Shown piece after piece: positions 1,328 to 49,490 of a stretch of DNA of 64,000 nucleotides. Source of the DNA: Candidatus Bathyarchaeota archaeon (GTDB lineage Archaea > Thermoproteota > Bathyarchaeia > Bathyarchaeales > Bathycorpusculaceae); contig OY969706.1 of the NCBI GenBank assembly GCA_963702095.1, forward strand, positions 2,688,001 to 2,752,000, in the 5' to 3' direction. The translations under genes and the position numbers were made by a program. Position 1 is the stretch's first letter. Each line of letters begins with the position of its first letter. The notes beneath the pieces were generated by a model. That model was not told the DNA's origin, made no database searches, and worked only from the letters and a program-made list of their open reading frames with translations.

Positions 1328-1415
1328 TGGTGCGGAGGGTGGGATTTGGACCCACGAACCCCTGCGGGATAAGAGCCTCAGTCTTACGCCTTTGACCATG
1401 CTTGGCGACCTCCGC
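1328..1415 (-). tRNA. tRNA-Leu(GAG) with encoded CCA
   Basis: Cloverleaf GCGGAGG acceptor, anticodon stem TAAGA/TCTTA with loop CTGAGGC, long variable arm, ends ACCA. Confidence 0.95.
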
Positions 1416-19164: not shown

Positions 19165-19165
19165 A

Positions 19166-19321
19166 ATGAACAAAACAAACTTTTTTCGAGAGGGCTCTAA
19201 AGTGCCCAAAAAAGAAGTGGAAGAGTTAAAAGAAGAAATAAACAGGCTAAAGCCGATACTTGAGAAAACAAGCATTGATGACGTAGTGAAGAACATAAAG
19301 GAAGACAGGGACAGCCGATGA
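19166..19321 (+). CDS. orphan VapB-like antitoxin fragment (51 aa; not in ORF track)
   Basis: ...INRLKPILEKTSIDDVVKNIKEDRDSR ending in an ATGA overlap typical of vapB-vapC junctions, but no vapC follows. Confidence 0.45.
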   Translation: MNKTNFFREGSKVPKKEVEELKEEINRLKPILEKTSIDDVVKNIKEDRDSR

Positions 19322-19329
19322 CAGCCCTG

Positions 19330-20278
19330 TCAATAGCGTCTGTCATTCCATCGGCAACCTTTACTGAAGTTAGTACAACCCCTATACCGTTCGCCTGTTT
19401 TTTGAGCAATACGCCAAACGAGTTTACCACCACAAACTGGGCAGTTACCAGCATCTTCATTTGAACTACTTATCTTCATTCGATGGTCTATCACATTTAC
19501 GATGAACTTCTCCTTATGGGCAAAGAAGAGAGGCAGATCATAAAGCTCGGTACTGCCCAGTGCAGAAAATTTGAGCGACTAATTTGCTTGCGTTGATTAA
19601 GCTGCTTATTTCGGTGCCTACGTTTTGAGCTAATCCGAGTTCTTGGAGCGCTTCGCGGACATGGCTGTCGGAAATACAGCATATTGCGGGGTGAAACTGG
19701 AACTGCCCGGCTTCTTTAAACTGTATTCTAAGCTCTCGGAATACAAGAAATAGTTTTACTTTAAGGTAAGCGTCGCCTGCATATCTTCTTGGGCTTCCAT
19801 TGAAGAGACTGCTGAGTTGCATTAGCCTGCTGGTATCGTTGTCCAGTACTCCAGCCCCCGAAAGGTATAAAATACATTTTATTTCGCGCCAAACAGACCC
19901 TTGAACACAATCGCCGTTTGCGATATAATCAAGCAGATTAAAAATCGCCGAATTTCCTATTTCACTACTTGCGAGTATTCTTAATTCATTATTAAGCTTT
20001 GGATCATTTTTCGCTTGTCTGAAATTCTCAATTGTGTACTTGTCTTTTATCGCTTGAAAAGCTTCGATACCTCTGTTTGTGCGGAGTGTTGGCTTATTAT
20101 TCCACAGGGACGCCAGTACAAACAGATGGAACAATCCATCTTCATCTATATCACCGTTTTTTTGCAATTCAATGCCAAGTAGGCTAGCCCAAGATTTTAG
20201 ACTGTTTTTATCAACAAATTCGCTATGTTCTTTGACGAACCATTCTGTTATTTCTCTACCGATTACTTCTGGGTTCAC
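19330..20278 (-). CDS. hypothetical HhH-glycosylase-like protein with C-terminal topoisomerase-type Zn ribbon, apparent frameshift near 19550
   Basis: KLFLVFREL and SDSHVREAL segments; removing one C continues YELYDLPLFF...CPVCGGKLVWRIAQKTGERYRGCTNFSKGCRW to a stop at 19330. Confidence 0.65.
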
Positions 20279-20356
20279 AGGTTTTTCCTCTCCTAGGAGT
20301 TATAGCCAACTAAAGAGTTAAATGCTTGTTCTTTAACACATTTAACTTGATAAAGC

Positions 20357-21178
20357 TTGCAGAAAAAAACGGTTTTTCCCAGAGACATTGTTCACATCAT
20401 TCCTTTGGGTCATGAGATAGATCGTGCAACGAAGGTATTTGATATTGCAAAGGCAAACCGCGCTTACATCTTAGCAACCATGGATACCTTTGGAAAACAC
20501 TCCGAAGCACTAGTTAAAGAACAAAAGTATTATACCGAAGAGGTTGTCCGAAAACTAGCGAAGAAAGGAATCGATATTATTGTCAAAAACGTCGATATGT
20601 TTGAAACCTCAGAGGTAATTCGTCAGCTCTCGGCAATTATTATCAGAGAAAAAGAAAGGAACAGCGATATTTCGATAAATATTTCCAGTGCAGGAAGATT
20701 AACTGCCGCTTTAGCTACGCTTGTGGCAATGGCGCATAAAGTAGACGCTTATTATCTAGAGGCAACCGCTTATCCTGAACGTCAGGAAGATCGAAAGATA
20801 CATGGATTAAGCATCTGTGATAGCTCCAAGATAAAATCTATTGAAAGCCTTCCAGTTGAGCTTCCCTTGCCACAAGAAATGGCAGTTCTAAAAGCTCTAA
20901 GCCAAAAATCGCCATTGAAACCCTACGAATTAATCCTATACCTAGCAAGAAACAATTTTCCGGGTTATCGAGAGCACGTACAGAGACTGGAAAAGGGCAT
21001 TCGCCGAAGCGACAAAGATTACGACGGAGTCTTGATTCCTTGCATGATGAAACTTAATAAGGGAATTTTAGAGAAACTAAAAACGAAAGGATATATTACC
21101 CGAGAAAAAGTTGGAAACAATAACTTAGTCGTACTACAGGAACCTGGAAGATTTGTAGCCTACTTTGCAGGCGACTAA
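20357..21178 (+). CDS. HFX_2341/DUF6293-like CARF-related domain plus winged-HTH regulator
   Basis: VHIIPLGHEIDR, INISSAGRLTA (CARF-like), C-terminal LEKLKTKGYITREKVG wHTH. Confidence 0.75.
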   Translation: MQKKTVFPRDIVHIIPLGHEIDRATKVFDIAKANRAYILATMDTFGKHSEALVKEQKYYTEEVVRKLAKKGIDIIVKNVDMFETSEVIRQLSAIIIREKERNSDISINISSAGRLTAALATLVAMAHKVDAYYLEATAYPERQEDRKIHGLSICDSSKIKSIESLPVELPLPQEMAVLKALSQKSPLKPYELILYLARNNFPGYREHVQRLEKGIRRSDKDYDGVLIPCMMKLNKGILEKLKTKGYITREKVGNNNLVVLQEPGRFVAYFAGD

Positions 21179-21261
21179 TAGAACGTGTTTATGCAAGCGA
21201 CTATAAAAAAGAGGTTTTTATATCGTTGCTGCATGATTTTAATGCAACGCGTTATAGCTTG

Positions 21262-21370
21262 CACAACCAGCCTGCAACCCAAACCAGACCCTGATGCCAA
21301 AAAGCAATTTTCTGCACAGCCAATTAGTTGTTGTTGTGTATAGGCGCTTTCCGCCAACAACAACTGATGA
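21262..21370 (+). repeat. intergenic repeat copy, M3 then hairpin M2 (21327-21370)
   Basis: cacaaccagcctgcaaccc...gccaaaaagcaat then GTTGTTGTTGTGTATAGGCGCTTTCCGCCAACAAC. Confidence 0.8.
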
Positions 21371-21460
21371 AAAACACCTAAATCCAGCCCTATTCCTACA
21401 GAAAAGTTAAATTAATTATGGCAAAGGATAATGTACTAACTGTTTGTGGAAGGTAACTTT

Positions 21461-32139: not shown

Positions 32140-32278
32140 TCTGCTTGCGGGTTACGCTCAAGCAGTCTGCAAGTCCCCCCTGCAAGCCTGAACCAAAAAA
32201 GCAAACCACCCCAAAGTCCCCGAGAAGAAGATGAATAAGGGCAGCATTCTCTTCTTCTTAACTAGAAAAACAGAAACT
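32140..32278 (+). repeat. intergenic repeat copy, M3+M4
   Basis: ttctgcttgc...cagtctgcaa...tgcaagcctgaaccaaaaaagcaa...gaagaagatgaataagggcagcattctcttcttc. Confidence 0.7.
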
Positions 32279-35288: not shown

Positions 35289-35720
35289 ATGCTTCGAGTA
35301 AACGTTGTTGTTTCAAGCATCTCAGCGGAACGTTACTGGGACATCCGCAAACCGGTACCGCCTATCCAGATCAACACCAACATTAACGTGGTGGGCATGG
35401 AGAAGAAGCCAGATGAATCCATAGAAGTGCCCTTTGTACTCACCATAGTTTACAACCCATCCATTGCCCAGATGACGCTGAAAGGCAACGCCTACGTTGT
35501 CGGCGAAAAAAGCGAAGTTGACAAAGTCCTAAAAGACTTTGAACAGAAAAAACCGCCTGCCCAAATAATCATCCAGTCAATCTCCAATGTCGTATTCATA
35601 GAGTCCGTACTGATTTCTCGTACCCTAAACATTCCGCCGCCGATTCCACTACCAATGATTCCTGAAGCAGGAACAAAACCACAGGGCGCAAAGCCCGAAG
35701 GCAGGGACTACAGCCGCTAA
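35289..35720 (+). CDS. archaeal hypothetical protein (beta-rich, possibly SecB-like fold)
   Basis: Alternating beta pattern, LKGNAYV, LNIPPPIPLP tail. Confidence 0.7.
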   Translation: MLRVNVVVSSISAERYWDIRKPVPPIQINTNINVVGMEKKPDESIEVPFVLTIVYNPSIAQMTLKGNAYVVGEKSEVDKVLKDFEQKKPPAQIIIQSISNVVFIESVLISRTLNIPPPIPLPMIPEAGTKPQGAKPEGRDYSR

Positions 35721-35785
35721 AAGAAATCGGTGATTGCTGCTGGTTTAGACTCGACATGCACACCCTTTTTATTGCTTCTTGCATT

Positions 35786-35900
35786 GGTTTGCTGGGGCTC
35801 TGGAACCCGTTTAATGAAGATAAGAGTGGAAAATGCAACTAAACCATTCTTCTACAACCGCGGCTACGTTAGTTATATCCAGAACCCACTCAGCCCACAT
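35786..35900 (+). mobile_element. 115-bp MITE-like element, copy 1
   Basis: 114/115 identical to 38081-38195; imperfect terminal inverted repeats GCTG(A/G)GGCTCTGGA ... TCCAGAACCCACTCAGC. Confidence 0.7.
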
Positions 35901-36218
35901 GCCTTTTTCCGCTGCCAGCAATACCGATTCTCTAATTTGTTGCCGTTAGGTCGTTAGCTAATCCATTTTTGGGTATGGCTTTTTCAATGACAAAATTCGT
36001 TTTTAGATATGGAGCAGTGGTTTGTTTGAGATGTGGCTTATAGCTGGCGTTTTTGGTTTGTTATGTTAACTTTTTGTTTGGTTTTTTTCTGTGGTTAGAT
36101 TGCTTATAGGACGGTTTGGGTTTTTGGGGTGTTGGAGTCGATTTTTCGAGTGGGCAATGATAGTGCCCGCTTGCATTGTGCTGATCATTGCTGTTACTGC
36201 CACGCTAAGAAAGCAAAT

Positions 36219-36489
36219 GATACATGCTTTCACACACACATCCAGTCCGGCCCCTGCATGGAACCATGTACCGCGTGTGGAAAAAAACGCATTTCTCACA
36301 CTGAAACAGACGCTAAAAAACGTTGCAACCACAAAAAGCAACCGCATTCAATTGCAGTCTTGTGGCATGCCGTAAACCGCCACCCCCACATAAAGACAAA
36401 GATGATCTCAGTCTCTTAGGGGGACGCTGGAAGCAGCAAACCGCTGGTTGTTGTTGTGTATGGGGAGTTTTCGGCAACAACTACTAATA
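36219..36489 (+). repeat. repeat module M1 copy B (36219-36396) followed by hairpin M2 (36446-36489)
   Basis: Most similar to reverse complement of 54121-54297; then GTTGTTGTTGTGTATGGGGAGTTTTCGGCAACAACTACTA. Confidence 0.85.
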
Positions 36490-36506
36490 AAAAAAGCCGA
36501 AGGCAG

Positions 36507-38000
36507 CTACAAGAAACCTTTGAAGCGTCTAGCCGCTGCATCCACGATTTTGAATTCAACTGGAAAACTAAAGTATCGGTGCTTCCAGCGGTACCGTGCC
36601 ATCTGATTCATCAGTGCATAGGCAAATTTGAAGGCTAAGGCGCGTTCCCTTATCCTTGCCTGAGGGTAGAAAGCAATACGCGTAACCGCGGAGATGGTGT
36701 GCAGTTTTTGGTTTTGCGCTTTTGTGTGCCAGGGCGGGTCAAAGTGAAAGACGTTGATGTTGCCCCATTCCTCCAGCGTCTGTGGCGCCGTAAACTCGGA
36801 GGGCAAAGAATCCATAACTGGACTTGGAAAAGGCGTGTAAACAAAGATCCCATAGTGCTGAGTTTTAGGGTTAATTTGGCTCATTTTATCCATTAAATCA
36901 AACGTTTCGGTTAGGTCCCCGTCGGTTTCGGTTGGCAAGCCACTCATCCATGACACGTAAGGCTCAATCGAAGGCGCAAACCGCCTCAGGTTCTCGAGGG
37001 ACTGCAACATCTCGTCAGCCGTTACATCTTTGCAAATCAACGTTTGTAGGCGCTCCGAGCCGGATTCCCCGCCAAAATCCAGTTCTACGCATCCTGCTTT
37101 CTCAAGCAACTCCAAGAAATCCTTGCTGTAGTTGGCTAAATAGTCGAATCTGCAGTTAGCTCGCCATTGCACCCCGAGGTTTCTATCCAGTAAGCCTTGG
37201 CAGATTTGTTTAACGCGGTATTCATCGACGAAAAAGTTGTCGTCTATGGGATCGATTATTTTTATGTGTGGATATTTTTGTATGACCCATTGGATTTCAT
37301 CTAGGACTCGGTTGGGACTTTTCCCCCGCCATTTGGTGTGGTTGAATCGAGAGTTGTAGCAGAAACCGCATCTGTGGGGGCAGCCACGGCTGGTTTGGAT
37401 GTGGAAACGTCCTGCTCTAAAAGACGGATACCGATCTAGGAGGAGAAGGTCATAGGGTAAATTCAAGGGTATATCGTCGAGATTGATTACTTTTCCATCA
37501 GGAGTGCTTTTGATTGTTTCGTTCACTTTATAGGTTAAACCTAAAACCTCATCTAGCGGCTGGTCTTCTAAAAGGGCGTCGGCAAGGTCTTTGACGACTA
37601 ATTCACCCTCGCCGCGAACCACTATGTCGACGTATTCGTTGCTTGCCGTTTGCTCTGGCAGCAATGTAGGGTGGACGCCGCCCCAAACGATGGGAACATA
37701 GGACGCCTGCAAACGCACGTACCTTGCAAATTCGAGGGCATATCTTATCTGTTGGCCACTCATGGCGCTTATACCCACAAAGAGGGAACTGCCGACGTTG
37801 TAGTGTCGGTAGTCTTCTAGGCGCATGTCAAGCAGGCGAACTTTGTAGCCTTCTTGCTGCAACGAAGAAGCCAAGTAGAGGAGGGCAAGTGGAACTTGAG
37901 GGTCTGAGGCACGGTATTTGCCGGGGTAGACTAGGAGAATCTCCTGATTACCGTTAGAGTTAGTGCATGAACGTGAAGAACATGATTGAGCGCTGAACAA
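36507..38000 (-). CDS. B12-binding radical SAM protein (class B methyltransferase-like); start uncertain
   Basis: PLALLYLAS, WGGVHPT, GEGE, TSRGCPHRCGFC, DDNF, GGESGS, GLPTET. Confidence 0.9.
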   Translation of the reverse strand: MFSAQSCSSRSCTNSNGNQEILLVYPGKYRASDPQVPLALLYLASSLQQEGYKVRLLDMRLEDYRHYNVGSSLFVGISAMSGQQIRYALEFARYVRLQASYVPIVWGGVHPTLLPEQTASNEYVDIVVRGEGELVVKDLADALLEDQPLDEVLGLTYKVNETIKSTPDGKVINLDDIPLNLPYDLLLLDRYPSFRAGRFHIQTSRGCPHRCGFCYNSRFNHTKWRGKSPNRVLDEIQWVIQKYPHIKIIDPIDDNFFVDEYRVKQICQGLLDRNLGVQWRANCRFDYLANYSKDFLELLEKAGCVELDFGGESGSERLQTLICKDVTADEMLQSLENLRRFAPSIEPYVSWMSGLPTETDGDLTETFDLMDKMSQINPKTQHYGIFVYTPFPSPVMDSLPSEFTAPQTLEEWGNINVFHFDPPWHTKAQNQKLHTISAVTRIAFYPQARIRERALAFKFAYALMNQMARYRWKHRYFSFPVEFKIVDAAARRFKGFL

Positions 38001-38080
38001 AAACCGAAAAAGCCTCTAGAAACACTATTCGAAACAGCACTATTAACCGTTACTCAAAACCGACGTCTGCACATATAGAG

Positions 38081-38195
38081 GGTTTGCTGAGGCTCTGGAA
38101 CCCGTTTAATGAAGATAAGAGTGGAAAATGCAACTAAACCATTCTTCTACAACCGCGGCTACGTTAGTTATATCCAGAACCCACTCAGCCCACAT
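38081..38195 (+). mobile_element. 115-bp MITE-like element, copy 2
   Basis: Direct repeat of 35786-35900 with one mismatch. Confidence 0.7.
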
Positions 38196-38262
38196 TTCTT
38201 CTTCTCTTATGCTTTGTTCCCAAAAAAAGGGGAAGGAAAATGTTTTGTTGGTTTATGCATGC

Positions 38263-40886
38263 TTATGGTCGTTTTCTAATCATCAATGCCAGTATCACAC
38301 CGACAATGACAATGACGATTATGATTGCAACGCCGATGGCAGCGATGGTCATAGTGTTATCGACAGGTTGCGCTGTTACTTGTGTTGGTGCGGGTGTTGC
38401 TGCGTCGCCTGCATAGAAAGTTGTTGAAGCGGATGATCCGTAGTACGAATTAGATCCTGCGAAGCTTGCGATAACGTTGAAGTTGCCTGAGATGTCGGGG
38501 GTCCATGTGAATGCATAGTTGCCATACGCGTCTGAAGTAGCGGTGCCGATTTGTCTAAAGTTGCCGTTTGCATCGACTACGCTGATGGTAACTGGAACTC
38601 CAGTTGTATTTGCGGGGATTGGCTGTTGCTGATAGAGGTATTCCATAAATTGACTTTGGCTTACGTCAGATACGCATGGAACGCCGTTTGGAAATAGCGG
38701 CCTGTTCTGTTTGTTGTGTGCCTGCGGATTTGTCGATTACAGTTCCCCTTATTGTTATTGGGGTAGCTGTGCTGACGCCAACATCAGGTGCGGTAACGGT
38801 CAAGGCGCTTGGGCCCTTTCCGAAGCAGTATATTTGGTCATCATATGCGTTGAGTGTTACAAGATAGCCATCAGTGACAATTGTTCCCACCTGTCCCCAA
38901 CATTCTTCTTTCCATATTTCCTGTCCGTTGGTTGCGTTGATGCAGCGAATATCCGAACCACGCCATTGGGGATTCGTTGGAGTGTGCTCAGACGAAATGG
39001 TATATATCTTTCCATCGGCAGCAGCGACTATGTTTAGGGGGTAATTGCCATAGGGAGATTCAGTGGCAGTGCCAGTAGCGGTGTAATTCCACAAGACTTG
39101 TCCGGTTGTGTCATCGTAGCAGAATAGTACTCCAGCGTAGCCAGCTGAATACATCTTGCCGTCAGCGACTATAGTAGTTAGAGCATTTGAGCCTTGCACA
39201 AGAAAATCTAAATCTGGTTGACTCGGAGTTGGACCCCATAACAGCTTTCCAGTGTTCAGGCTGTAGCCAGACCATGTCCTAGTTTCCTTGTCATATATTG
39301 TCCAGACACCGGTACTTGGGTCCATAGGTCCAAAGCTTAAGGTTTGGTTGCCTGGTGGCGCAGTGTAGTTCTGATTAAACAGTATAGTTCCTCGGTTTGA
39401 TGATTGTAGGTTTATAGCAAATACTGACCAGGGATCGTTGGTTCCGACCGTAGTCCCTCCACTTGCGGCGGGTGCCGGGTTTAGACCACCTGTACCAACT
39501 ATTTCGACGGGGTCTACGCTTGTTGGCCAGCCGTTGCCTGCTAGAACTCTTGCTATTTTTGCGGTTGAAGGTATTGAGCCTGCTGCCAATGTTATGTTCC
39601 AATCATATCCATATTTAGCTCCATCATATGTTGCATTAGGCTGAGGTCGCCAAATTGTGAGAACAACCCCAAAAGGCCCGAGAGGTGTGGTTTGAATGCA
39701 AGTAGTTGAGTTCCATTGAGCCAGCCAACCTAACGTAGTTGCAGTTGGTGCTTTTAGCACGTAAATTAATTCATTGCCCGCTTGATCTACATATCTTGTC
39801 CCTGTTGGCGCGTTATTGATTTGGCATATGTAATTGCCTGAGGAAGCATCGAACATTTGCCATGTTGATCCTGAAGTGCTCCATAAGTATGGAAATACAC
39901 CGTGTTGATTTGATGATTCATAGTTTAATTCTTGACCAAATGACAGTGCTGGCCAATATGTTGAAGCCAAGTTTGTTGCAGAAAATAACGACGGAAGAGT
40001 GCTATTCGTAAATGATAGTTTTTGCCCTGTCACCAAGTTTACTGAATACCAGCCGTTTCGTGGGTTGTTTAAGTTGTTGTAGTATAGGACGCCATTCATG
40101 ACAAATCCGTACCATCTGGGTTCATATGTTACTCCATAGAAATACTCGTTATTTCCAGCGTTTCCTCCTGCGACGGCCTCCAGCCCATATTGGGCTTGTC
40201 CACATTACGTGACCGCTCTCTGGTGCCGTTGAGTATGGGTTGAGCAGTGTTCCTGCAGCGTCGTAACCAGTTTCAATCCAATCGCCTGTGATAGTTGCCC
40301 ATTGCCTATTCATACCATTTATTGGTCGTGTCCAGTACTCTGTTGGAAGCGGAGTTTCTTGCCAAGCTTGAACGAGTTGATTCTGTACGTTTACTGAGAT
40401 TTTATCACTAATGGATGGGCCAACATAATAGTTGTAATTGACGCCATTTAGAGTTGTGTTATATGTTTGTCCGGGGAAGCTAAATTGGAAATAGTATGTG
40501 CCGTTTGTTTTAGGAACGTAGGTGGTGTAAGTCGATCCAGTTGGATCAGACGTAAATGGACCTAGTGTATCAGTGGTACCGTCTGGTTTAGTTACGTTCA
40601 ACATAAAGCCGCCTAGTTGCGGGTATGAGTATGGTGCAATATTTTGAATCCATGGAGCTGATGAGTCAAGAAGCATAACAACAAGCAGGTTTTGGTCAAC
40701 GCCTACTGGATTAGGTGTGCAGTTTATGTACGCATACGAGGCTTTGTAATAATCTATTGAAGAAGCAGCGTTAGTGTTTGGCAGTGAAATCATTGAAGCG
40801 ACTATTGAAAGCACTAGAATCATAGCAATTGCGATAGTTACAGTTTTATTTTTTGCAGAATAATTTCTTTTTATATTTTTTAACAT
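38263..40886 (-). CDS. large secreted PQQ-like beta-propeller protein with C-terminal TM anchor; apparent frameshifts near 40170 and 38690
   Basis: Signal peptide, PNPVGV, PLPTEYWTRPI, repeated G..LW/Y..TG motifs, YD.QIYCFGKG, TGVPV, TM plus RKRP; three ORFs join in register. Confidence 0.85.
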
Positions 40887-41110
40887 TGTCTTTTTTTCCT
40901 TTTTTTCTGTAAGAAACAGATGCCCTCAATTTTACATTTAAGAAAGCGTGGTGTATCCCAAACACAACAAATTTAGTAATTTAGAATTTAAGCGCTGTTT
41001 TCTTCAAAATTAAAACAAACTTGTCACCAAATAATAATTCATTCATTCTTCTAGATAAGAGAGTCACAATTCGAAAACATTAAATAATAATTCTACAAAT
41101 TACGCGTAGA

Positions 41111-41938
41111 ATGACTAATTTAAAAGCAGATAGTAACAATGCAGAAATATTAGAAAAGATAGGGTTAACTTCGTTGCAGGCAAGAATCTACACCGCTTTA
41201 GGCTATTCAGGAAAAGAAAAAATATTAACGATCTCAAAGATAGCCAACGTAGACCGATCAAACACATATCGGACAATTCTACAACTTCAAAATATGGGTT
41301 TGGTTATAAAATTACTGGGGACACCAAACTCTTATGAAGCAGTGCCTTTGAAAGAAGCCGTCTCAACTTTGGTTAATCGCAAAAAAAGCGAATACGAAAA
41401 AACACAAAGTATTGCACAGAAATTAATCCAATCAAACTCCGAACTATTTTCGGCATCTCAAGGAAAAGAATATGAGTTTAAAATAGTTAAGAAGACCAAA
41501 GAACCGGCCAAGGAAGCAATGATTGATACATACAGGAATCTCCAAAAAAGTAATGATTACATACTCAAGAAGAAGACAGTTATTGAGGCGTATAGTGAAT
41601 TAACCGAAGAAGGATTAGCATGCCTTAGACGAGGAATAAAATTCAGAGTTATTACTGAAAAGGTAGCATCACGATCCATCCTAAAAGAACTTGGCCTTTT
41701 TATATCAGAGCCCAACTTCCAATTAAGATACATTCTCAAAGAACCCGAGGCAGAAATAGTTATCAATGACAAGAAAGTTGCCAAAATCACGCTGACACCA
41801 AATTTAGGATTAGCAGAAAAGCCGACCTTAATAACGGATCACCCAGTTGTTGTAAAAATATTCCAAAATCATTTTGACAATTTATGGAAACATGCAAAAG
41901 AGTATAATTTAGAAGAATTAAAAGGGCAAAAACCTTGA
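41111..41938 (+). CDS. TrmB family transcriptional regulator
   Basis: IGLTSLQARIYTAL, ISKIANVDRSNTYRTILQLQNMGLV wHTH; IVINDKK...FDNLW PLD-like sensor domain. Confidence 0.88.
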   Translation: MTNLKADSNNAEILEKIGLTSLQARIYTALGYSGKEKILTISKIANVDRSNTYRTILQLQNMGLVIKLLGTPNSYEAVPLKEAVSTLVNRKKSEYEKTQSIAQKLIQSNSELFSASQGKEYEFKIVKKTKEPAKEAMIDTYRNLQKSNDYILKKKTVIEAYSELTEEGLACLRRGIKFRVITEKVASRSILKELGLFISEPNFQLRYILKEPEAEIVINDKKVAKITLTPNLGLAEKPTLITDHPVVVKIFQNHFDNLWKHAKEYNLEELKGQKP

Positions 41939-42079
41939 AAAAGAGTTTGACAAGACCAACTTTTTTAAAGTTAGTTCGATTCGGTTTATTTTTTGTGACG
42001 GCCTAATTTATCTCTAATGGTTATGCTGATCCCCAATTGCATAGTGCTACTCATTGTCTTGTGGAGGAAAAAAGCTGTC

Positions 42080-42442
42080 GATACATGCCTCTACATTCAC
42101 GCTGTTGCCGCTTCAACATGGACCCATGTATCGCGTGTGGAGAAAATCGCATATCCCACACCATAACAGTTGTTGAAAAACGTTTCATTCGCAAAAAGCA
42201 ACCGCCTTCAATTGCAGTCTTGTGGCACCCACAAATCGCCACACCCACATAAAAGAAAAACAGGTTGCACTTTGGGTAAGGGAGGCTAGTAGAGAAATAG
42301 TGGTTGGCTTGTGTGTCTTCTGCTTGCAGAATAGCCACAACTAACCAACAGATGCCTAAACTAGCCAAACCCCAAACAGGCGCCAAAACGCAGTCTGCTG
42401 GTTGTTGTTGTGTATAGGGGTTTTCTGCAACAACTACTAATG
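42080..42442 (+). repeat. composite repeat: M1 copy C (42080-42255), partial M3 (~42317-42345), hairpin M2 (42400-42442)
   Basis: Block-wise identity to the other copies; shows the module order M1-M3-M2. Confidence 0.85.
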
Positions 42443-42508
42443 AAAAAAGAAAACTGTGTAAACATAAGCATAACAAACAAGAAAGAAAATAAAAGAAGAA
42501 AAGGTTGA

Positions 42509-44747: not shown

Positions 44748-45760
44748 CTATTTCCGTTGAGTGGACTCCAGTGAGATATAAGTTACTTGCGGTGCTGCTT
44801 CAGGAACCTCTGTGGGCGGACGAGCAGGTACTCTTAGGCGTATTAAGCGTTTTTCTGTGCCGGGTATGCTGCCTTCTAGTAGGACGTATGGTCCATTGAC
44901 CTCTCCATATCGGACGTAGCCGCCTTTTATGGTGACTTCTTTGCCGTCTTTGCCGATTTTGAGTATGCGTTTGTTGAATTCGATACGTTGGTGATAGCCT
45001 GTTTGTCCTGCGCGTGGTATGCTGTACATGAGGTGGTGGGGGTTCCATGGTGGAGGGTGGCGATGCCGCGTTTGGTTTTTCTGCCTTTGTGCTGGAGTTT
45101 GGTTACGTGCCAGCGTTTAACTGGGCCTTGGAAGCCTTTGCCGACGGTTACGCCGGCTATGTCGATGTATTGGCCTTCTTTGAAGACTTCTTCGGGCGTT
45201 ACTGTTTTGCCCAAGAGTTGTTTGGCGTAGTCGAATTGTTGCTGGGTGTTTCCGCCGCCGATTTGGATTTCCATGGTTTCGGGTTTTTTCTTGGATAGGC
45301 TGGTTTGGCTGGGTTGGGTGGCGGTTATAACTCGGACTAAGTCGGTGTTTTCGAGGTTGTCTTGGACTTTCTGCAGCATGGCGTCTGTGTTAAAGTTTTC
45401 CGGCAGGACCAAAAGTCTGCCCAGCAGTGCCGGCGGTTCTTTCATCCATGCTTCTGTGAGGTTTAAGAGCCCATAGGGTGTTTTCTGGTAAGTGCGTATG
45501 CCACATATGATGATTGGTGGCGTTTCAAGTATGGTTGCTGCCCGCATGACTTCTTTACCGAAGTTTGGTGAACGCTTCCTGTCCTCAATAGTGAAGACAT
45601 AGGTCATACCTGCCTTGTAAGATGTGAATCCTAAAAGCCTAGGAGTTTCAGACTCTATTTTTGGCCAGTAACGAATCCGTGCAGTAGGTTTCTTTGCACG
45701 ATGCCTTGGCAAATAGGCTAGTGAACCATGTTTTGGAGCATGAGTTTTACGATGTCCCAT
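44748..45760 (-). CDS. rpl3p: 50S ribosomal protein L3, apparent frameshift near 45050
   Basis: PKHGSLAYLPR, YKAGMT, GKGFQGPVKRW; continues PRAGQTGYHQR, GSIPG in the second frame. Confidence 0.95.
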
Positions 45761-45950
45761 TGATCATCCGCTTCGCGCCTTTAGCAAATAGTGCAAGAGG
45801 TTATAAATGTTGCCGTTTAAAACGCAAAAGGATGGTTAGGCTGAAAAAAAACATTTTCTAAGCTCCAGCCTAGTATAGGATGCTGTTTGCCTTCAGTGGC
45901 TGTCCATCGTTTGCAACACTACACATAGAAACGGGTGCTTTTGACTTTTT

Positions 45951-46058
45951 CTATAGTAGTTGTTGCCGAAAACCCCCTATACACAACAACAATCAGAGGC
46001 TTGTGAAAACGATTGTATTTCAACATTGGCGTTTGGTTTACGTTGCAGACTGGTTGTG
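45951..46058 (-). repeat. intergenic repeat copy, M3 (46026-46058) then hairpin M2 (45951-45993)
   Basis: Reverse complement cacaaccagtctgcaacg...attgttgttgtgtatagggggttttcggcaacaactactatag. Confidence 0.8.
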
Positions 46059-46184
46059 TAACAAACCACAAGCAGTCGCAGGTAATTAACGACAGATAGG
46101 ATACATTCATGAATTCCGTGGTAAAAAAAGAACTTTCCAAAAAAGCCATGGTAAAAATTATTGGCATCGCAACCAGAGCAGAAG

Positions 46185-46391
46185 TTAAATCATGTCAAAA
46201 TGTTCTAGGGCATCCTTTATATTCCCAAATTTTTCAATGGGACAAGGATTAGTTCGCTCTTTTCCCTGTCGGTTTGGTGCTTTCCTCATTTTAATGTTGC
46301 ACTGAGATTTAACGTCGGCAATCCAGCAAGTCTTAGGTATGAAACCATATTTCTGTTTTACATAATCTTGGATTTCTTTGTAAGTAGCCAT
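46185..46391 (-). CDS. small stand-alone domain resembling the C-terminal extension of some RlmD/TrmA methyltransferases
   Basis: ATYKEIQDYVKQKYG...IADVKSQC...CPIEK..IKDALEHFDMI pattern recalled from that family; GGTGG upstream. Confidence 0.6.
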   Translation of the reverse strand: MATYKEIQDYVKQKYGFIPKTCWIADVKSQCNIKMRKAPNRQGKERTNPCPIEKFGNIKDALEHFDMI

Positions 46392-46405
46392 ATGACCACC
46401 AGACG

Positions 46406-46594
46406 TTAAGGATTATCGTGTTCTAGGTCAAAAAATACAACATTACAAGTCGGGCATATCTTAGCGTAAAGAATTTCATGCTTTGTATGTTTATCACTCG
46501 GTACATGAGCAGATATGAGCATTACTTCTCTAAACTGCGTATAATGTGCTTTATGGCCTAAGGGGCAAGTAATTTCTCGTTGCGGATGAGGCAT
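46406..46594 (-). CDS. small putative Zn-binding protein
   Basis: 62 aa, CPLGH...CPTC. Confidence 0.55.
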   Translation of the reverse strand: MPHPQREITCPLGHKAHYTQFREVMLISAHVPSDKHTKHEILYAKICPTCNVVFFDLEHDNP

Positions 46595-46693
46595 ATAGAA
46601 GTAGGTGCCAAAAAGCGGTTTTATGTTTTTTGGTGGCTAAGTTCGAGTGCCTGTTACTTGTATTGGATAGAGAACAAACGGGACTGGCAAGGA

Positions 46694-46930
46694 TCACTTT
46701 AGTCGCCTTAGCTCTGCCTCAAACGCCTCAGTGGATATGTTGGTAAACGATTCTTTATGCTTGCCCAGTTCATACATGAAATCCCCGAGCGATAAACCAG
46801 CCAACTTTGTGGCTTGCCCAACAGAGATTTTTTTTTCTTTGTAGAGTATTAGGGCTAAGTAAAGCTTCAAATCGTCTTCGCTAAGGTCATTGACCAAAGC
46901 TTTGGGAATGTTGAGCTCCAATAATTTCAC
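46694..46930 (-). CDS. UPF0175 family antitoxin-like protein
   Basis: ALILYKEKKISVGQATKLAGLSLGDFMYELGKH; no PIN toxin follows. Confidence 0.8.
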   Translation of the reverse strand: MKLLELNIPKALVNDLSEDDLKLYLALILYKEKKISVGQATKLAGLSLGDFMYELGKHKESFTNISTEAFEAELRRLK

Positions 46931-47001
46931 TTGTCGTCAAATGGTTGGACGTTACTAAAATACCTTGTCAAAATGAGAAGAAAGAGAAAATAAGTGCAGT
47001 T

Positions 47002-48447
47002 CTAACGAGGGACAACTGCAAGGAAGGGTTCTGGACCCATTTCTGCAGTCGCATAAACTGCCAGTGATATTGCCCAGAATACGTCGTCGTGTGTGCCTTG
47101 TGGGTGGTGGTAGCCTATGGTGCCGTCTTTGTTTAGGCTGTAGCGTTCGACGTTTAGTTCGGTGCAGATTTCGCCCCGGTAAGGTCGCTCCCAATGCAGC
47201 AGTGGGTAGTAGAGTTGGTGGTTTGCCATGCGCTGTTTGAGCAGGCTTGCCATTTCGCTTTTACGGGGCACGCTAAAGTTTACGCCTTCAGCGTTGTGTA
47301 TGCCTGCTGCTTCCATGTCGGCGATGAAGCTTGGGCCTTCCCGTGTGAAGTCCACTCGGATTTTCTCGAACCCGTGCCAGCGGTCCTGCAAGGTTTTGAG
47401 GTAGCCCAATACAGTTGCGTAAATGGTGGGTTGCTGGAAGATTTTGAGGTGACGCAGCAACAACCGCCCATCCACCCGCTCAACTACGGCGAGGGCGGTG
47501 TAGTCCCTGGTCTGCGCCAAATCCAGCCCAACAAAGAATTCGCCTCGGTGCTCAGATTCGGGGTTGAATTCTTGGAGGTCTACGCCACAGGTTGCTTTTG
47601 TGCCGATGCAGTTGGCGATTAGACTTTGCGTTAGCCATACGTCTTGGTCTTCTGCCCATTCCGCCTCCATTTCCCGCCGCCAACGGATTGGGTCATCGCC
47701 CATCTGTGTCTTGATTTTTTGGATTATGCTGGGTTTTAGTGGTCCGTTTGGTTCGGTGGCTTGTTCGACGGTGACGTGGCTGGTTTTGTAGTCGGCGAAG
47801 TCTTTGTGGGTAAACATTTTGTAGAAGACGCTGTCGGTGTGCCATGGTGTGCTTGTGCAGACGAATTTGCCGTTTGTGGTGCCCAATGTGTAGAGGATGG
47901 CGTCGTAGAGTTCTTGGTCGTTGGCGACGAAGTTGAATTCGTCAGCGTAGACCACGTGCAGGGTGGGTCCGCGGATGGTTTCGGGGTTGTTTGGGAAGGC
48001 TTCGATGCTGCTGCCGTTTTGGAAGTGGATTTGGGTGCGCTGGGGCACAAAAACCAGTCTCCTAGGAAGCTTATGGGAAAGCGAGCCTATGCGGCTAAGG
48101 ATGCGTTTGGTTTGCCGCCAAGACGGACCAACTAAACCGATGGCGCTATCTGGGTGGGTGGTTGCATACCAGAGCAGAAGGGCAGCTACGATGAAGCTCT
48201 TGCCACTTTGCCGACTCCACCGGGCCGCCGTAAACTGGTTTTCAACGAATAGTTTGATGAACTCTTCTTGGTAGGCAAAGGGTTTGAAGCCCAAGATTTC
48301 TCTGCAGAAAACTGCGGGGTCCTCGCTGAGGTCCACAGTTTTCTCCAGTGCCAACCCTTCGGCTAGTAGGTCACTGTTCTGGACTTTTTGCCATGTCTGC
48401 TGGAACTGGTTGGGACGCATTGTTCTTGCTTTCGAGGAGCGCGGCAT
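47002..48447 (-). CDS. terminase large subunit-like ATPase-nuclease
   Basis: PFAYQ Q-motif, SRQSGKS Walker A, VVYADEF Walker B, TSTP motif III, VGLDLAQTRDYTA and HDD RNase H-like nuclease. Confidence 0.9.
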   Translation of the reverse strand: MPRSSKARTMRPNQFQQTWQKVQNSDLLAEGLALEKTVDLSEDPAVFCREILGFKPFAYQEEFIKLFVENQFTAARWSRQSGKSFIVAALLLWYATTHPDSAIGLVGPSWRQTKRILSRIGSLSHKLPRRLVFVPQRTQIHFQNGSSIEAFPNNPETIRGPTLHVVYADEFNFVANDQELYDAILYTLGTTNGKFVCTSTPWHTDSVFYKMFTHKDFADYKTSHVTVEQATEPNGPLKPSIIQKIKTQMGDDPIRWRREMEAEWAEDQDVWLTQSLIANCIGTKATCGVDLQEFNPESEHRGEFFVGLDLAQTRDYTALAVVERVDGRLLLRHLKIFQQPTIYATVLGYLKTLQDRWHGFEKIRVDFTREGPSFIADMEAAGIHNAEGVNFSVPRKSEMASLLKQRMANHQLYYPLLHWERPYRGEICTELNVERYSLNKDGTIGYHHPQGTHDDVFWAISLAVYATAEMGPEPFLAVVPR

Positions 48448-48831
48448 ATTTTGCCTCCATATCGTTTAGTTTGGCTTCTACTTCTCGGTAGTTGAGGTAG
48501 TCGGAGAGGATTTCTTTGTAGGCGCGGGCTAGGGTGGCGACGACTTGCAGTCGCTGAACCTCCACTTTACTGAGCCCGGGGCAGAGGCTGCTTCCAATGC
48601 GCCTGCCAATTTTTTGAGTGTTTCCTCTACGCTAGGCAACTCGGCAGGCAGGGGCAAGGTGGCGGTGGTTACGTGTCCGCTTGGTACCAATCCGAGGCGC
48701 CCGCACTTAACAAGGACTGCAGGGGCTGTTCTTCGAAGGGTTAATGCTATTGCGTCTATGGATTTGTTGGCTTCTACGAGTTTTTTGAGTTGGACTTCCT
48801 CTTCAACTGTCCAAGGTAAACCTCTTGTCAT
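48371..48831 (-). CDS. Myb-like HTH plus coiled-coil protein (terminase small subunit candidate), apparent frameshift near 48578
   Basis: PWTVEEEVQLKKLV..SIDAIA HTH; adding one C in GCCCCGGG joins the two ORFs; overlaps the terminase start. Confidence 0.65.
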
Positions 48832-48923
48832 AATCAAGACCTAAAGGGACTGGAGGGCAGAACTGCTTTTGAACTATTTTGCGCTTCAAAAAGGCGATTT
48901 GTTTAATGCTTTTTTAAAGGTTG

Positions 48924-48990
48924 ATTGCTTTTTTGTTTTGGGCTTGCAGTGGCGTTGCAGAAGGGTTGTGGCGTATTCTACAAGCAGAGG
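48924..48990 (-). repeat. intergenic repeat copy, M3
   Basis: Reverse complement tctgcttgtagaatacgccacaacccttctgcaacgccactgcaagcccaaaacaaaaaagcaat. Confidence 0.75.
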
Positions 48991-48995
48991 GGGAC

Positions 48996-49490
48996 TTAGC
49001 AAACACGTTCAATAACCTGATCCGCAGCAGCCTCGTCACTGAGACCCGCCACATCTATGGTTACATCGGCATATCTTCGGTAAAAAGGCAACCTCTCCAA
49101 AAAAAGCTGCTCCAGCCCCTTCTCTTTCAACCCAACAATTCCCCTGCCCGAAAAATCCGCAGTGCGCTTTTTGATTTCCTCCAAAGAAGCATCCAAAAAC
49201 ACCACCACAGAGATGCTCTTTAGAAACCCCATTGCCTTCTCCGAATACACGGAACTGCCTCCAGAAGAAATAACCGAATCACTTACCGTCCCTATGCCGA
49301 GTATAGCGTTCTCTTCTAAGTCCAGGAACCTTTCATTTCCTAAACAGTCGATTAAATCCTGCAGTTTCCTGTTAGTAGCTTCCTCAATAATCCTGTCAAT
49401 GTCAATAAAGCCAAAATTCAACCGTTCCGACAAAAGCAGACCTATATGACTCTTACCAACACCAGACATACCAATGAGGGTTATATTCAT
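48996..49490 (-). CDS. aroK: bacterial-type (P-loop) shikimate kinase family protein
   Basis: LIGMSGVGKS, DID, SSGGS, ERLPFYRRYAD. Confidence 0.8.
   Translation of the reverse strand: MNITLIGMSGVGKSHIGLLLSERLNFGFIDIDRIIEEATNRKLQDLIDCLGNERFLDLEENAILGIGTVSDSVISSGGSSVYSEKAMGFLKSISVVVFLDASLEEIKKRTADFSGRGIVGLKEKGLEQLFLERLPFYRRYADVTIDVAGLSDEAAADQVIERVC

Follow-up and report, generated by a model that had tools for sequence, protein, structure and literature searches.

Phage satellites that carry a terminase subunit of their own include the Staphylococcus aureus pathogenicity islands (SaPIs), the phage-inducible chromosomal islands (PICIs), and the capsid-forming PICIs. The archaeal satellites described so far are plasmid-derived according to the part of their description available here, in which a terminase is not mentioned. 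In bacteria, lateral transduction is reported to be linked to defence islands (PMC12829572). For Bathyarchaeia, a siphovirus-like provirus of 46.8 kb was reported from a Bathy-6 genome (PMC11697101); it encodes a terminase, an integrase, and structural proteins, and the virus is termed common in Bathyarchaeia in the available part of that report. Herein, these systems are compared with a terminase locus in a stretch of 64,000 nucleotides (nt) from Candidatus Bathyarchaeota archaeon, a member of the Bathy-6 Bathyarchaeia (contig OY969706.1, positions 2,688,001 to 2,752,000; the window). The locus is built from a gene for the terminase large subunit (TerL) and a small gene overlapping its start, both lying in an islet that also contains copies of a short repeat. 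It is best read as a solo terminase module that is derived from a provirus, is maintained by selection, is separate from the repeats, and may still package DNA in trans; this complete statement is given a probability of roughly 0.6. High confidence is placed in its descriptive part, namely a virus-derived pair without virion genes, persisting in selected lineages, with a recombination hot spot beside it and with repeats that are independent of it. In the following, G000 denotes the genome of the window and the other G-numbers denote genomes of relatives; T1 is the TerL copy of the window, T2 and T3 are the second and third copies of G000, and L-numbers denote the TerL loci that were compared.

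The TerL gene (47002–48447, minus strand) is intact and encodes 481 amino acids (aa). The protein matches Terminase_6N (5.4e-19, 69 bits at a cut-off of 22), phrog_2 (3.4e-40, residues 52–466), and, among solved structures, the ATPase domain of T4 gp17 (2.7e-13); the match to Terminase_6C (1.5e-4, 22.2 bits) lies just below the cut-off of 22.6. The ATPase motifs GK[ST], [DE]E, and STP are invariant in all 73 full-length TerL sequences that were compared, and the RNase H-like nuclease is marked by the conserved residues D309, D366, D454, and D455. In the 35 solo copies defined below, Walker A (GK[ST]), Walker B ([DE]E), STP, and the four nuclease aspartates are unchanged without exception. The locus shares with terminases of the T4 gp17 type the order of domains, the catalytic motifs, and a small DNA-binding gene overlapping the start of TerL. 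It differs from them by containing no portal, capsid, or tail gene and by a small protein without detectable homology to solved small subunits.

The small-subunit-like gene (48371–48837, minus strand) was delineated from protein families, a structure model, and the open reading frames (ORFs) of relatives, and the overlap of its end with the TerL start is seen at all loci. The model, computed from 30 homologues with a mean pLDDT of 78, predicts a three-helix helix-turn-helix (HTH) at residues 9–46, followed by three long helices at residues 68–138. The N-terminal HTH is of the GcrA/Myb type: it superimposes on the DNA-binding domain of GcrA with a TM-score of 0.84 on the target (profile search 2.9e-4), and a profile search of the PDB returns just the HTHs of GcrA, Myb, and Timeless. 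No terminase family was found for the small protein in Pfam, PHROGs, or NCBIfam, and neither PADLOC nor NCBIfam gave a match for TerL or the small protein. By its position, its overlap with TerL, and its predicted architecture, the protein would thus behave like a small terminase subunit, a likeness that was found in arrangement and not in sequence or fold.

A match to the TerL family is present in 31 of 41 genomes of a genus and order sample, with 0–8 matches per genome when fragments and copies with stop codons are included. G000 contains three full copies that are 64–66% identical, together with two short fragments. To place the family, the neighbours of 26 TerL loci were clustered and then searched against families. 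The resulting provirus order begins with a scaffold/cement protein, a major head protein (phrog_267, 1e-12), and a tail tube protein (Phage_tube_2, 5.6e-14), continues with a Neck1/HK97-gp10-like protein, a membrane protein, a tail protein of 536–1003 aa, and two small proteins, and ends with the small HTH protein, TerL, and a fusion of an ABC-ATPase with a GNAT domain. T2 holds the complete cluster, and the same order is found in G014, G040, and G005, while T3 keeps just the last four genes (c4–c13–small–TerL) before the position of the ABC–GNAT gene. The window TerL therefore belongs to the same family as the copies in the capsid and tail clusters of the genus, T2 included, which supports a virus-derived nature of the cassette that the sequence-only reading had called terminase-like. 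Compared with the Bathy-6 proviruses, as far as they are covered by the available part of the report (PMC11697101), the window has the terminase end alone, forms a long-lived lineage of its own, and has no ABC–GNAT gene after TerL. A complete tailed provirus is not found at the locus, and the sole head-protein gene of G000 lies 1.6 Mb away. Taken together, gene order and sequence relationships indicate that siphovirus-like proviruses of Bathy-6 Bathyarchaeia, which bear their terminase genes at one end, are the source of the pair.

Two side observations concern this family. The ABC-ATPase–GNAT protein of 480 aa (L002:45-1490, equal to G000:C1:1088946-1090391, and L032:9474-10913) follows TerL in 32 of 35 classified provirus-type loci (L051–L130), and many viral contigs stop about 1.4–1.5 kb past TerL, which is the length of this gene. 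The two TerL fragments of G000 are isolated C-terminal pieces (G000:C1 1452404-1452490, residues 449–477, and 1456771-1456848, residues 409–433) on the same strand, 4.3 kb apart, with copies of a 187-nt repeat in between.

The cluster proteins served as tblastn queries (E ≤ 1e-5) to class 80 loci from species genomes, each taken with flanks of 3 kb. After removal of seven that contained stop codons or matched over less than 440 aa, 73 full-length TerL sequences, including the three of G000, entered the tree; 38 are provirus-type and 35 are solo, with one flank being short for seven of the solo copies. In the maximum-likelihood tree, the solo copies form clades of 16 tips (support 1.0, with the window copy inside), 13 tips (0.998), and 3 tips (0.99). 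All three are nested among provirus-type copies, and the 16-tip clade is entirely solo. Fitch parsimony places a provirus-type state at the root and requires six changes. In IMG/VR, a collection of contigs called viral only, the 80 best relatives are just 54–69% identical to the window TerL; hence, none of them falls into its clade. A major-head-protein gene exists elsewhere in all five genomes that carry a pair of the window's clade and is never adjacent to the pair.

The coding sequence carries a strong signature of constraint. Within solo clades, the pairwise ratio of nonsynonymous to synonymous substitutions (dN/dS) is 0.057–0.121 in 13 of 14 pairs, the synonymous distance (dS) being saturated in the fourteenth, and the window TerL gives 0.06–0.08 against its orthologues. 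Across the clade of the window, TerL has stayed intact over a dS of 0.45–1.1, at a dN/dS of 0.06–0.09 and with every motif kept. Solo pairs thus appear as at least three well-supported clades among provirus-type copies, with conserved motifs, strong purifying selection, and several copies per genome. Literature searches on orphan, standalone, solitary, or domesticated terminases, on archaeal terminase satellites, and on archaeal lateral transduction returned no description of such pairs.

The conserved unit comprises promoter, small gene, and TerL and has a length of about 1.9 kb. Its promoter-like leader (48838–48913, minus strand), delimited by blastn boundaries and an alignment of 12 loci, is A/T-rich and contains a TTTAAA/ATTAAA box. 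When the 17 loci of the window's clade are compared, homologous DNA reaches no more than 100 nt ahead of the small gene and breaks off about 25 nt or less from the TerL stop codon; the unit has no terminal repeats. These edges hold even where the upstream flank is syntenic, as in L123, L124, and L126, which share 2.6 kb upstream and still break at the TerL stop. The pairs T1 and L052, T1 and L053, and L056 and L058 have neither flank in common at nucleotide identities of about 85%, 82.5%, and about 85%, respectively. Only two of the 16 other clade loci, the orthologues in G005 and G007, adjoin aroK or rpl3. The module is therefore found in different genomic contexts among close relatives, in line with the mobile character that had been ascribed to it.

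The DNA that follows TerL is variable. G000, G005, and G007 contain the same module and the same repeat on the rpl3 side with three unrelated cargos in between. In G005, homology restarts at the 5′ end of this downstream element, the far limit of the variable cargo; L054 and L055 behave likewise, homology restarting 5 nt before the first position of the element. Toxin–antitoxin, AbiV, or methyltransferase (MTase)–Mrr genes are part of the cargo at five of the 17 clade loci. Directly after TerL, these are VapB–PIN and AbiV (L055), MazE and an MTase–Mrr fusion (L053), PIN (L059 and L123), and UPF0175 (window), while the remaining clade loci have ordinary host genes there. In addition, C-terminal fragments of TerL (the last 30–85 residues) are located 0.5–5 kb downstream on the same strand at four of 79 genome loci, all of them solo, and further ones in L039 and L046; none was found in 80 viral contigs, and the single upstream fragment belongs to a split gene. 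In L055 and L123, a toxin–antitoxin cassette of about 0.7 kb lies between the TerL stop and the fragment. Such displaced 3′ fragments with a cassette in front of them make the 3′ end of TerL a recurrent point of recombination. As judged from these comparisons, a hypervariable segment begins at the TerL stop codon and often contains toxin–antitoxin or defence genes.

In the window, the cargo consists of three small genes on the minus strand: a UPF0175 antitoxin-like protein of 78 aa (46694–46930; Pfam 4.4e-12, PADLOC candidate PDC-S70 2.7e-8), a Cys/His-rich ORF of 62 aa without a family match in Pfam or PHROGs (46406–46594), and a 68-aa protein of the viral family phrog_27283 (46185–46391). 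A stretch 52% identical to the last of these occurs in G008, 3 kb downstream of the orthologous module. On the aroK side, a truncated repeat copy representing the 5′ hairpin half, M3 (48921–48987, minus strand), directly follows the aroK stop; it covers positions 1–67 of the repeat profile in nhmmer and was also seen as inverted-repeat pairs. On the rpl3 side, a full element with M3 hairpin, spacer, M2 hairpin, and A-run (45947–46075), identified by its hidden Markov model (HMM) and its inverted repeats, is oriented as the upstream copy. The sequence-only reading had taken the terminase as enclosed by direct M3 copies. The two copies do lie on the same strand on both sides; the upstream one is a truncated 5′ half, and the two are no more alike than other members of the family, sharing its core only. 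The idea that they are att sites was dropped for the same reason, their common part being the family core.

The repeats form a family that extends far beyond this locus. An iterated nhmmer search of the 2.94-Mb genome, seeded with the downstream copy, rose from 73 to 178 and then 181 matches, 163 of which are full length. The unit of about 135 nt consists of a 5′ hairpin (CTGCTTGWGG...CCWCAACCAGC, M3), a spacer, a 3′ hairpin, and CTAGAAAA with an A-run. Its ends are sharp, the information content being at background 3 nt before and 6 nt after the unit. Pre-set pairs were counted and each copy was folded separately. The 3′ hairpin occurs in two stem versions with matched changes on both arms, GGTTGTTGTTG/CAACAACAAC (M2) and GGAAGAAGATG/CTTCTTCT, and folds in both of them (mean minimum free energy −12.7 versus −9.1 kcal/mol for shuffles); the 5′ hairpin is weaker (−6.5 versus −4.6). 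RNAalifold on 152 copies gave no consensus structure. The copies are intergenic, with 32 of 181 overlapping a called ORF by more than half, and their orientation to neighbouring genes follows no rule (56, 50, 42, and 33 of 181 in the four classes), for which reason a reading as terminators or untranslated regions was dropped. Two further repeat families comprise 114 and 32 copies. The window is the densest of 46 bins of 64 kb, with 15 elements against a mean of 7.1, so that the flanking of TerL by repeats is less special than it looks.

Insertions without a terminase are seen at several places. A 128-nt element at 32141–32268, between the genes for eIF2-gamma and a NUDIX protein, is absent from the same site in G005:C29. 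At 35727–36510, three modules (D2, a 187-nt module, and the M2 hairpin) form a 784-nt composite that G007:C76 lacks at the corresponding site; flanking the composite, G000 has a duplicate of about 30 nt from the 3′ end of the upstream gene (35289–35720). Finally, a low-GC islet of 2.1 kb (19165–21261), which encodes an HFX_2341/DUF6293 protein and no terminase, lies between the stop of a gene and the 5′ end of an element at about 21245–21373. It is absent from G007:C68, where the element directly follows the stop. The 5′ ends of repeats thus also border islets without terminase, and the terminase cassette, as had been claimed, sits in a repeat-bounded variable islet like others of the window.

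Among the classes used for comparison, repetitive extragenic palindromes and bacterial interspersed mosaic elements (REP/BIME), miniature inverted-repeat transposable elements (MITEs), hairpin repeats derived from the insertion sequences IS200/IS605, and integron attC sites, the M repeats are alike in being short, intergenic, and modular, with compensatory stems, sharp ends, and presence/absence polymorphism between species. They differ from these by having no terminal inverted repeats, Y1 transposase, TnpB, reverse transcriptase, or Rfam family. Y1_Tnp, the TnpB zinc-ribbon domain, and RVT_1 gave no match in the genome while the controls were positive, and an IS200/IS605 or retroelement origin was dropped on these grounds; at Rfam gathering thresholds, one tRNA and no family for the repeats was found in the window. 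They resemble MITEs in their discrete ends and in their presence or absence at orthologous sites; against this, their ends are not inverted copies of each other, and no cognate transposase was found in the genome. Overall, their structure and distribution mark the M1–M4 repeats as a separate, genome-wide family of small, MITE-like, two-hairpin insertion elements and not as recognition sites of this terminase.

Further observations on the repeats stand apart from the terminase. In G005, a provirus-type TerL on contig C45 is preceded, about 8 kb upstream, by the homologue of the islet 19165–21261. A low-GC segment of 4 kb within 38080–42446 (GC 0.34–0.41) contains four genes, two of which encode a TrmB regulator and a PQQ-repeat protein; with D2 at one end (38080–38193) and the 187-nt module plus M3/M2 at the other (42075–42446), it looks like a cargo-bearing version of the composite at 35727–36510. 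A PIN-domain gene (763–1170) is flanked by elements at 412–537 and 1196–1317, the latter ending 11 nt from the 3′ end of tRNA-Leu (1328–1415, minus strand). Near-identical repeats in inverted pairs, 6–38 kb apart, occur in G000:C1 at 523990/561541, 991065/996880, 1119583/1128044, and 1169670/1183157; a tyrosine-recombinase match (560562–561023) lies about 0.5 kb from a copy of one pair. These pairs may mark invertible or recently inserted segments.

How the module and the repeats relate to each other can be explained in several ways. The sequence-only reading combined them into one mobile or DNA-transfer system, in which the pair is the enzyme, M2 and M3 are pac-like recognition sites, and the other islets are non-autonomous derivatives. 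The repeat copies on both sides of the cassette speak for it, as does the end of the cargo at the 5′ end of a repeat in two syntenic sets. Likewise, seven of 17 clade loci have a repeat on the same strand 1–3.5 kb downstream of TerL, these representing merely three to four independent groups. We nevertheless regard this system as highly improbable. The 181 copies, with 114 and 32 more of the two other families, face three TerL loci, and the nearest M3/M2 elements lie 27 and 64 kb from T2 and 8.7 and 25 kb from T3. With the downstream copy as BLAST query against 40 further genomes of the genus, at least 21 matches each were obtained in G005 and G007, 10 in G008, 7 in G055, and 4 in G024, which has no TerL match. 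None was obtained in G014, G010, G023, G012, and G002, where all 5–12 first-look candidates were scored, and these five relatives have 6–8 TerL matches each. Across 213 loci scanned with the repeat HMM, no provirus-type locus or viral contig contained a match. Repeats therefore occur in a genome without a TerL match and are missing near many TerL loci, the pattern that the sequence-only reading had itself named as refuting. Both the insertions and the islet described above arise at repeats without TerL, and the terminase family belongs to proviruses with capsid and tail genes. The proposed link is given up; the terminase by itself may still serve in DNA transfer. An alternative that assigns the active role to the repeat starts from a resident M3/M2 element, at whose 5′ end the insert between aroK and rpl3 would have been deposited through homologous recombination or by a recombinase supplied in trans; the pair would be mere cargo, and the repeat instead of TerL would account for the hot spot. 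This is unlikely, although it accords with the TerL-free islet at the 5′ end of another element, the duplication at the composite, the seven tyrosine-recombinase matches of the genome, and the second aroK copy of G007, which has an internal deletion and lies where the cargo ends on its far side. Solo modules with variable cargo and TerL 3′ fragments are also found in L103, L119, L039, and L046, from genomes in which no repeat was found, and the variable DNA begins, on its near side, at the TerL stop in every comparison.

The remaining explanations concern what the pair does. Being a plain, decaying remnant of a provirus without a present function would fit the graded series within one genome, from the full cluster of T2 through c4–c13–small–TerL in T3 to the pair alone in T1, and also the many fragments and stop-codon copies of relatives and the frameshifted orthologue in G007. 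The selection data agree badly with it: the 16 tips of the clade are all solo, yet their TerL has remained intact and constrained, and random decay would not keep the same 1.9-kb unit with its promoter in about ten contexts; hence, it is considered very unlikely. An antivirus module, in which the pair would act on related viruses by recognising their DNA and cutting or mis-packaging it, or else by tying up their procapsids, has somewhat more in its favour and is still improbable. It would account for the neighbouring toxin–antitoxin, AbiV, and MTase–Mrr genes and the UPF0175 neighbour with its match to a PADLOC candidate, for the patchy spread of 0–8 matches per genome, fragments included, for the intact nuclease site, and for the faster divergence of the 5′ (HTH) part of the small gene, the DNA homology of many pairs beginning only 175–560 nt into the gene. 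On the other side, no PADLOC model matches either protein, literature searches gave no such system, and purifying selection on all 481 aa, the ATPase motor included, exceeds the needs of a role confined to the nuclease. In the reading as a selected solo module, the conservation of the whole motor–nuclease protein and its partner leads us to infer that the pair most likely still acts on DNA, jointly with procapsids from provirus-type relatives. More specifically, it may still package in trans, using procapsids of a resident or infecting virus of the provirus type and moving adjacent chromosomal DNA. Packaging would begin at a site picked by the pair's own small subunit, and the DNA downstream of the pair would be moved in a manner like lateral transduction or like a satellite. 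The turnover of cargo beside TerL would then be explained. Taken alone, this trans-packaging is a tentative proposal, possible and rather doubtful. A bolder version sees the solo pairs as self-standing packaging drivers, which would perform headful packaging from their own chromosomal site into capsids of a co-resident provirus and ship downstream DNA to other cells, so that lateral transduction would take place with no prophage involved. This version would explain the selection on the pairs, the turnover of toxin–antitoxin and defence cargo exactly at the TerL stop, and the downstream pile-up of displaced TerL 3′ ends at solo copies only; we think it unlikely to hold.

The described systems give this comparison its frame. 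With the SaPI/PICI satellites, the solo pairs share packaging genes without a full virion set, and their genomes also harbour proviruses of the helper type; compared with PICI-like satellites, the module lacks an integrase, replication genes, and att repeats. As in the cases of lateral transduction near a prophage or PICI, variable defence and toxin–antitoxin genes lie directly downstream of a packaging module. In those cases, going by the available part of the source, in situ packaging begins from a complete prophage or PICI (PMC12829572), whereas here the pair is alone and is known from its genes alone.

Several observations weigh against the reading as a selected, provirus-derived solo module with a packaging role. 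No portal was recognised in the T2 cluster, the candidate helper, and the small protein has no match in sequence or fold to a solved small terminase (Foldseek against the PDB at E ≤ 0.001, and profiles). The solo class is defined by 3-kb flanks and tblastn at E ≤ 1e-5, and one clade member has a head-protein fragment of 77 aa about 9 kb away. Differences in context could come from rearranging flanks as opposed to movement of the pair. The orthologous TerL of G007 is broken over three frames, so some copies decay, and the small gene of the window is frameshifted in this assembly, which could be real. The neighbourhood of toxin–antitoxin and defence genes suits an antivirus role equally well.

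The frameshift deserves a closer description. The small gene of the window is split into ORFs 48529–48837 and 48371–48565 by a 1-nt deletion near 48578, in a CCCC/GGG run, as judged against G005 and G007; in relatives, it is a single ORF of 142–188 aa. Likewise, rpl3 (44748–45760, minus strand), the first gene of the ribosomal protein operon, is present as two ORFs because one nucleotide is missing from a C run near 45050, and it is intact in G005. A search of public sequencing runs listed one DNA run, containing 0.05 of the sequence words, and no RNA run. This DNA run, placed on the window at 80% identity, yielded contigs of relatives only, 145 of 288 being less than 90% alike. They insert a C at 45052/45053 in rpl3 and at 48574 in the small gene, which is consistent with both gaps being assembly errors. 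Because the essential rpl3 has a like gap and the contigs of relatives add a C, the gap in the small gene is read as a probable error as well; that in rpl3 probably stems from long-read assembly and suggests further homopolymer frameshifts in the assembly. The same contigs cover TerL and rpl3 and leave out the cargo at 46169–46669. They pile up at the M2 hairpin, and one weak joint (45982 to 48964, with a 24-letter side) connects the two flanking repeat copies.

The islet as a whole reads on the minus strand as aroK, the partial M3, the small HTH/coiled-coil gene, TerL, three small ORFs, the full M3 and M2, and rpl3, so that all parts listed by the sequence-only reading are present in its order. 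The shikimate kinase gene aroK (48996–49490, minus strand; Pfam SKI 2.3e-31) is the host gene bordering the islet upstream. Farther out, aroK, PCNA, and primase genes lie on one side and rpl3–rpl4–rpl23–rpl2 on the other; the rpl3 assignment follows from the ORFs and from relatives. A Pfam scan of 46 of the 62 window ORFs (at least 90 aa) found no integrase or transposase, and none of the seven tyrosine-recombinase matches of the genome falls inside the window, in agreement with the earlier claim. In G007, the far edge of the cargo carries the second, internally deleted aroK together with an M3 half (L028, G007:C31, 167-317); the bracketing of this cassette by aroK sequences points to a circular piece that entered through a single crossover.

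Bathyarchaeia are abundant, uncultured archaea of sediments, and to our knowledge almost nothing is established about the means by which they exchange genes. The small structured insertion elements of about 135 nt, whose 5′ ends border variable islets and for which no enzyme was identified, pose a separate question that is set apart from that of the terminase. For the terminase itself, long-lived, selected, multi-copy pairs without virion genes would point to one of two things: packaging enzymes that were co-opted, whether to transfer genes or to interfere with viruses, or a minimal element that depends on a virus.

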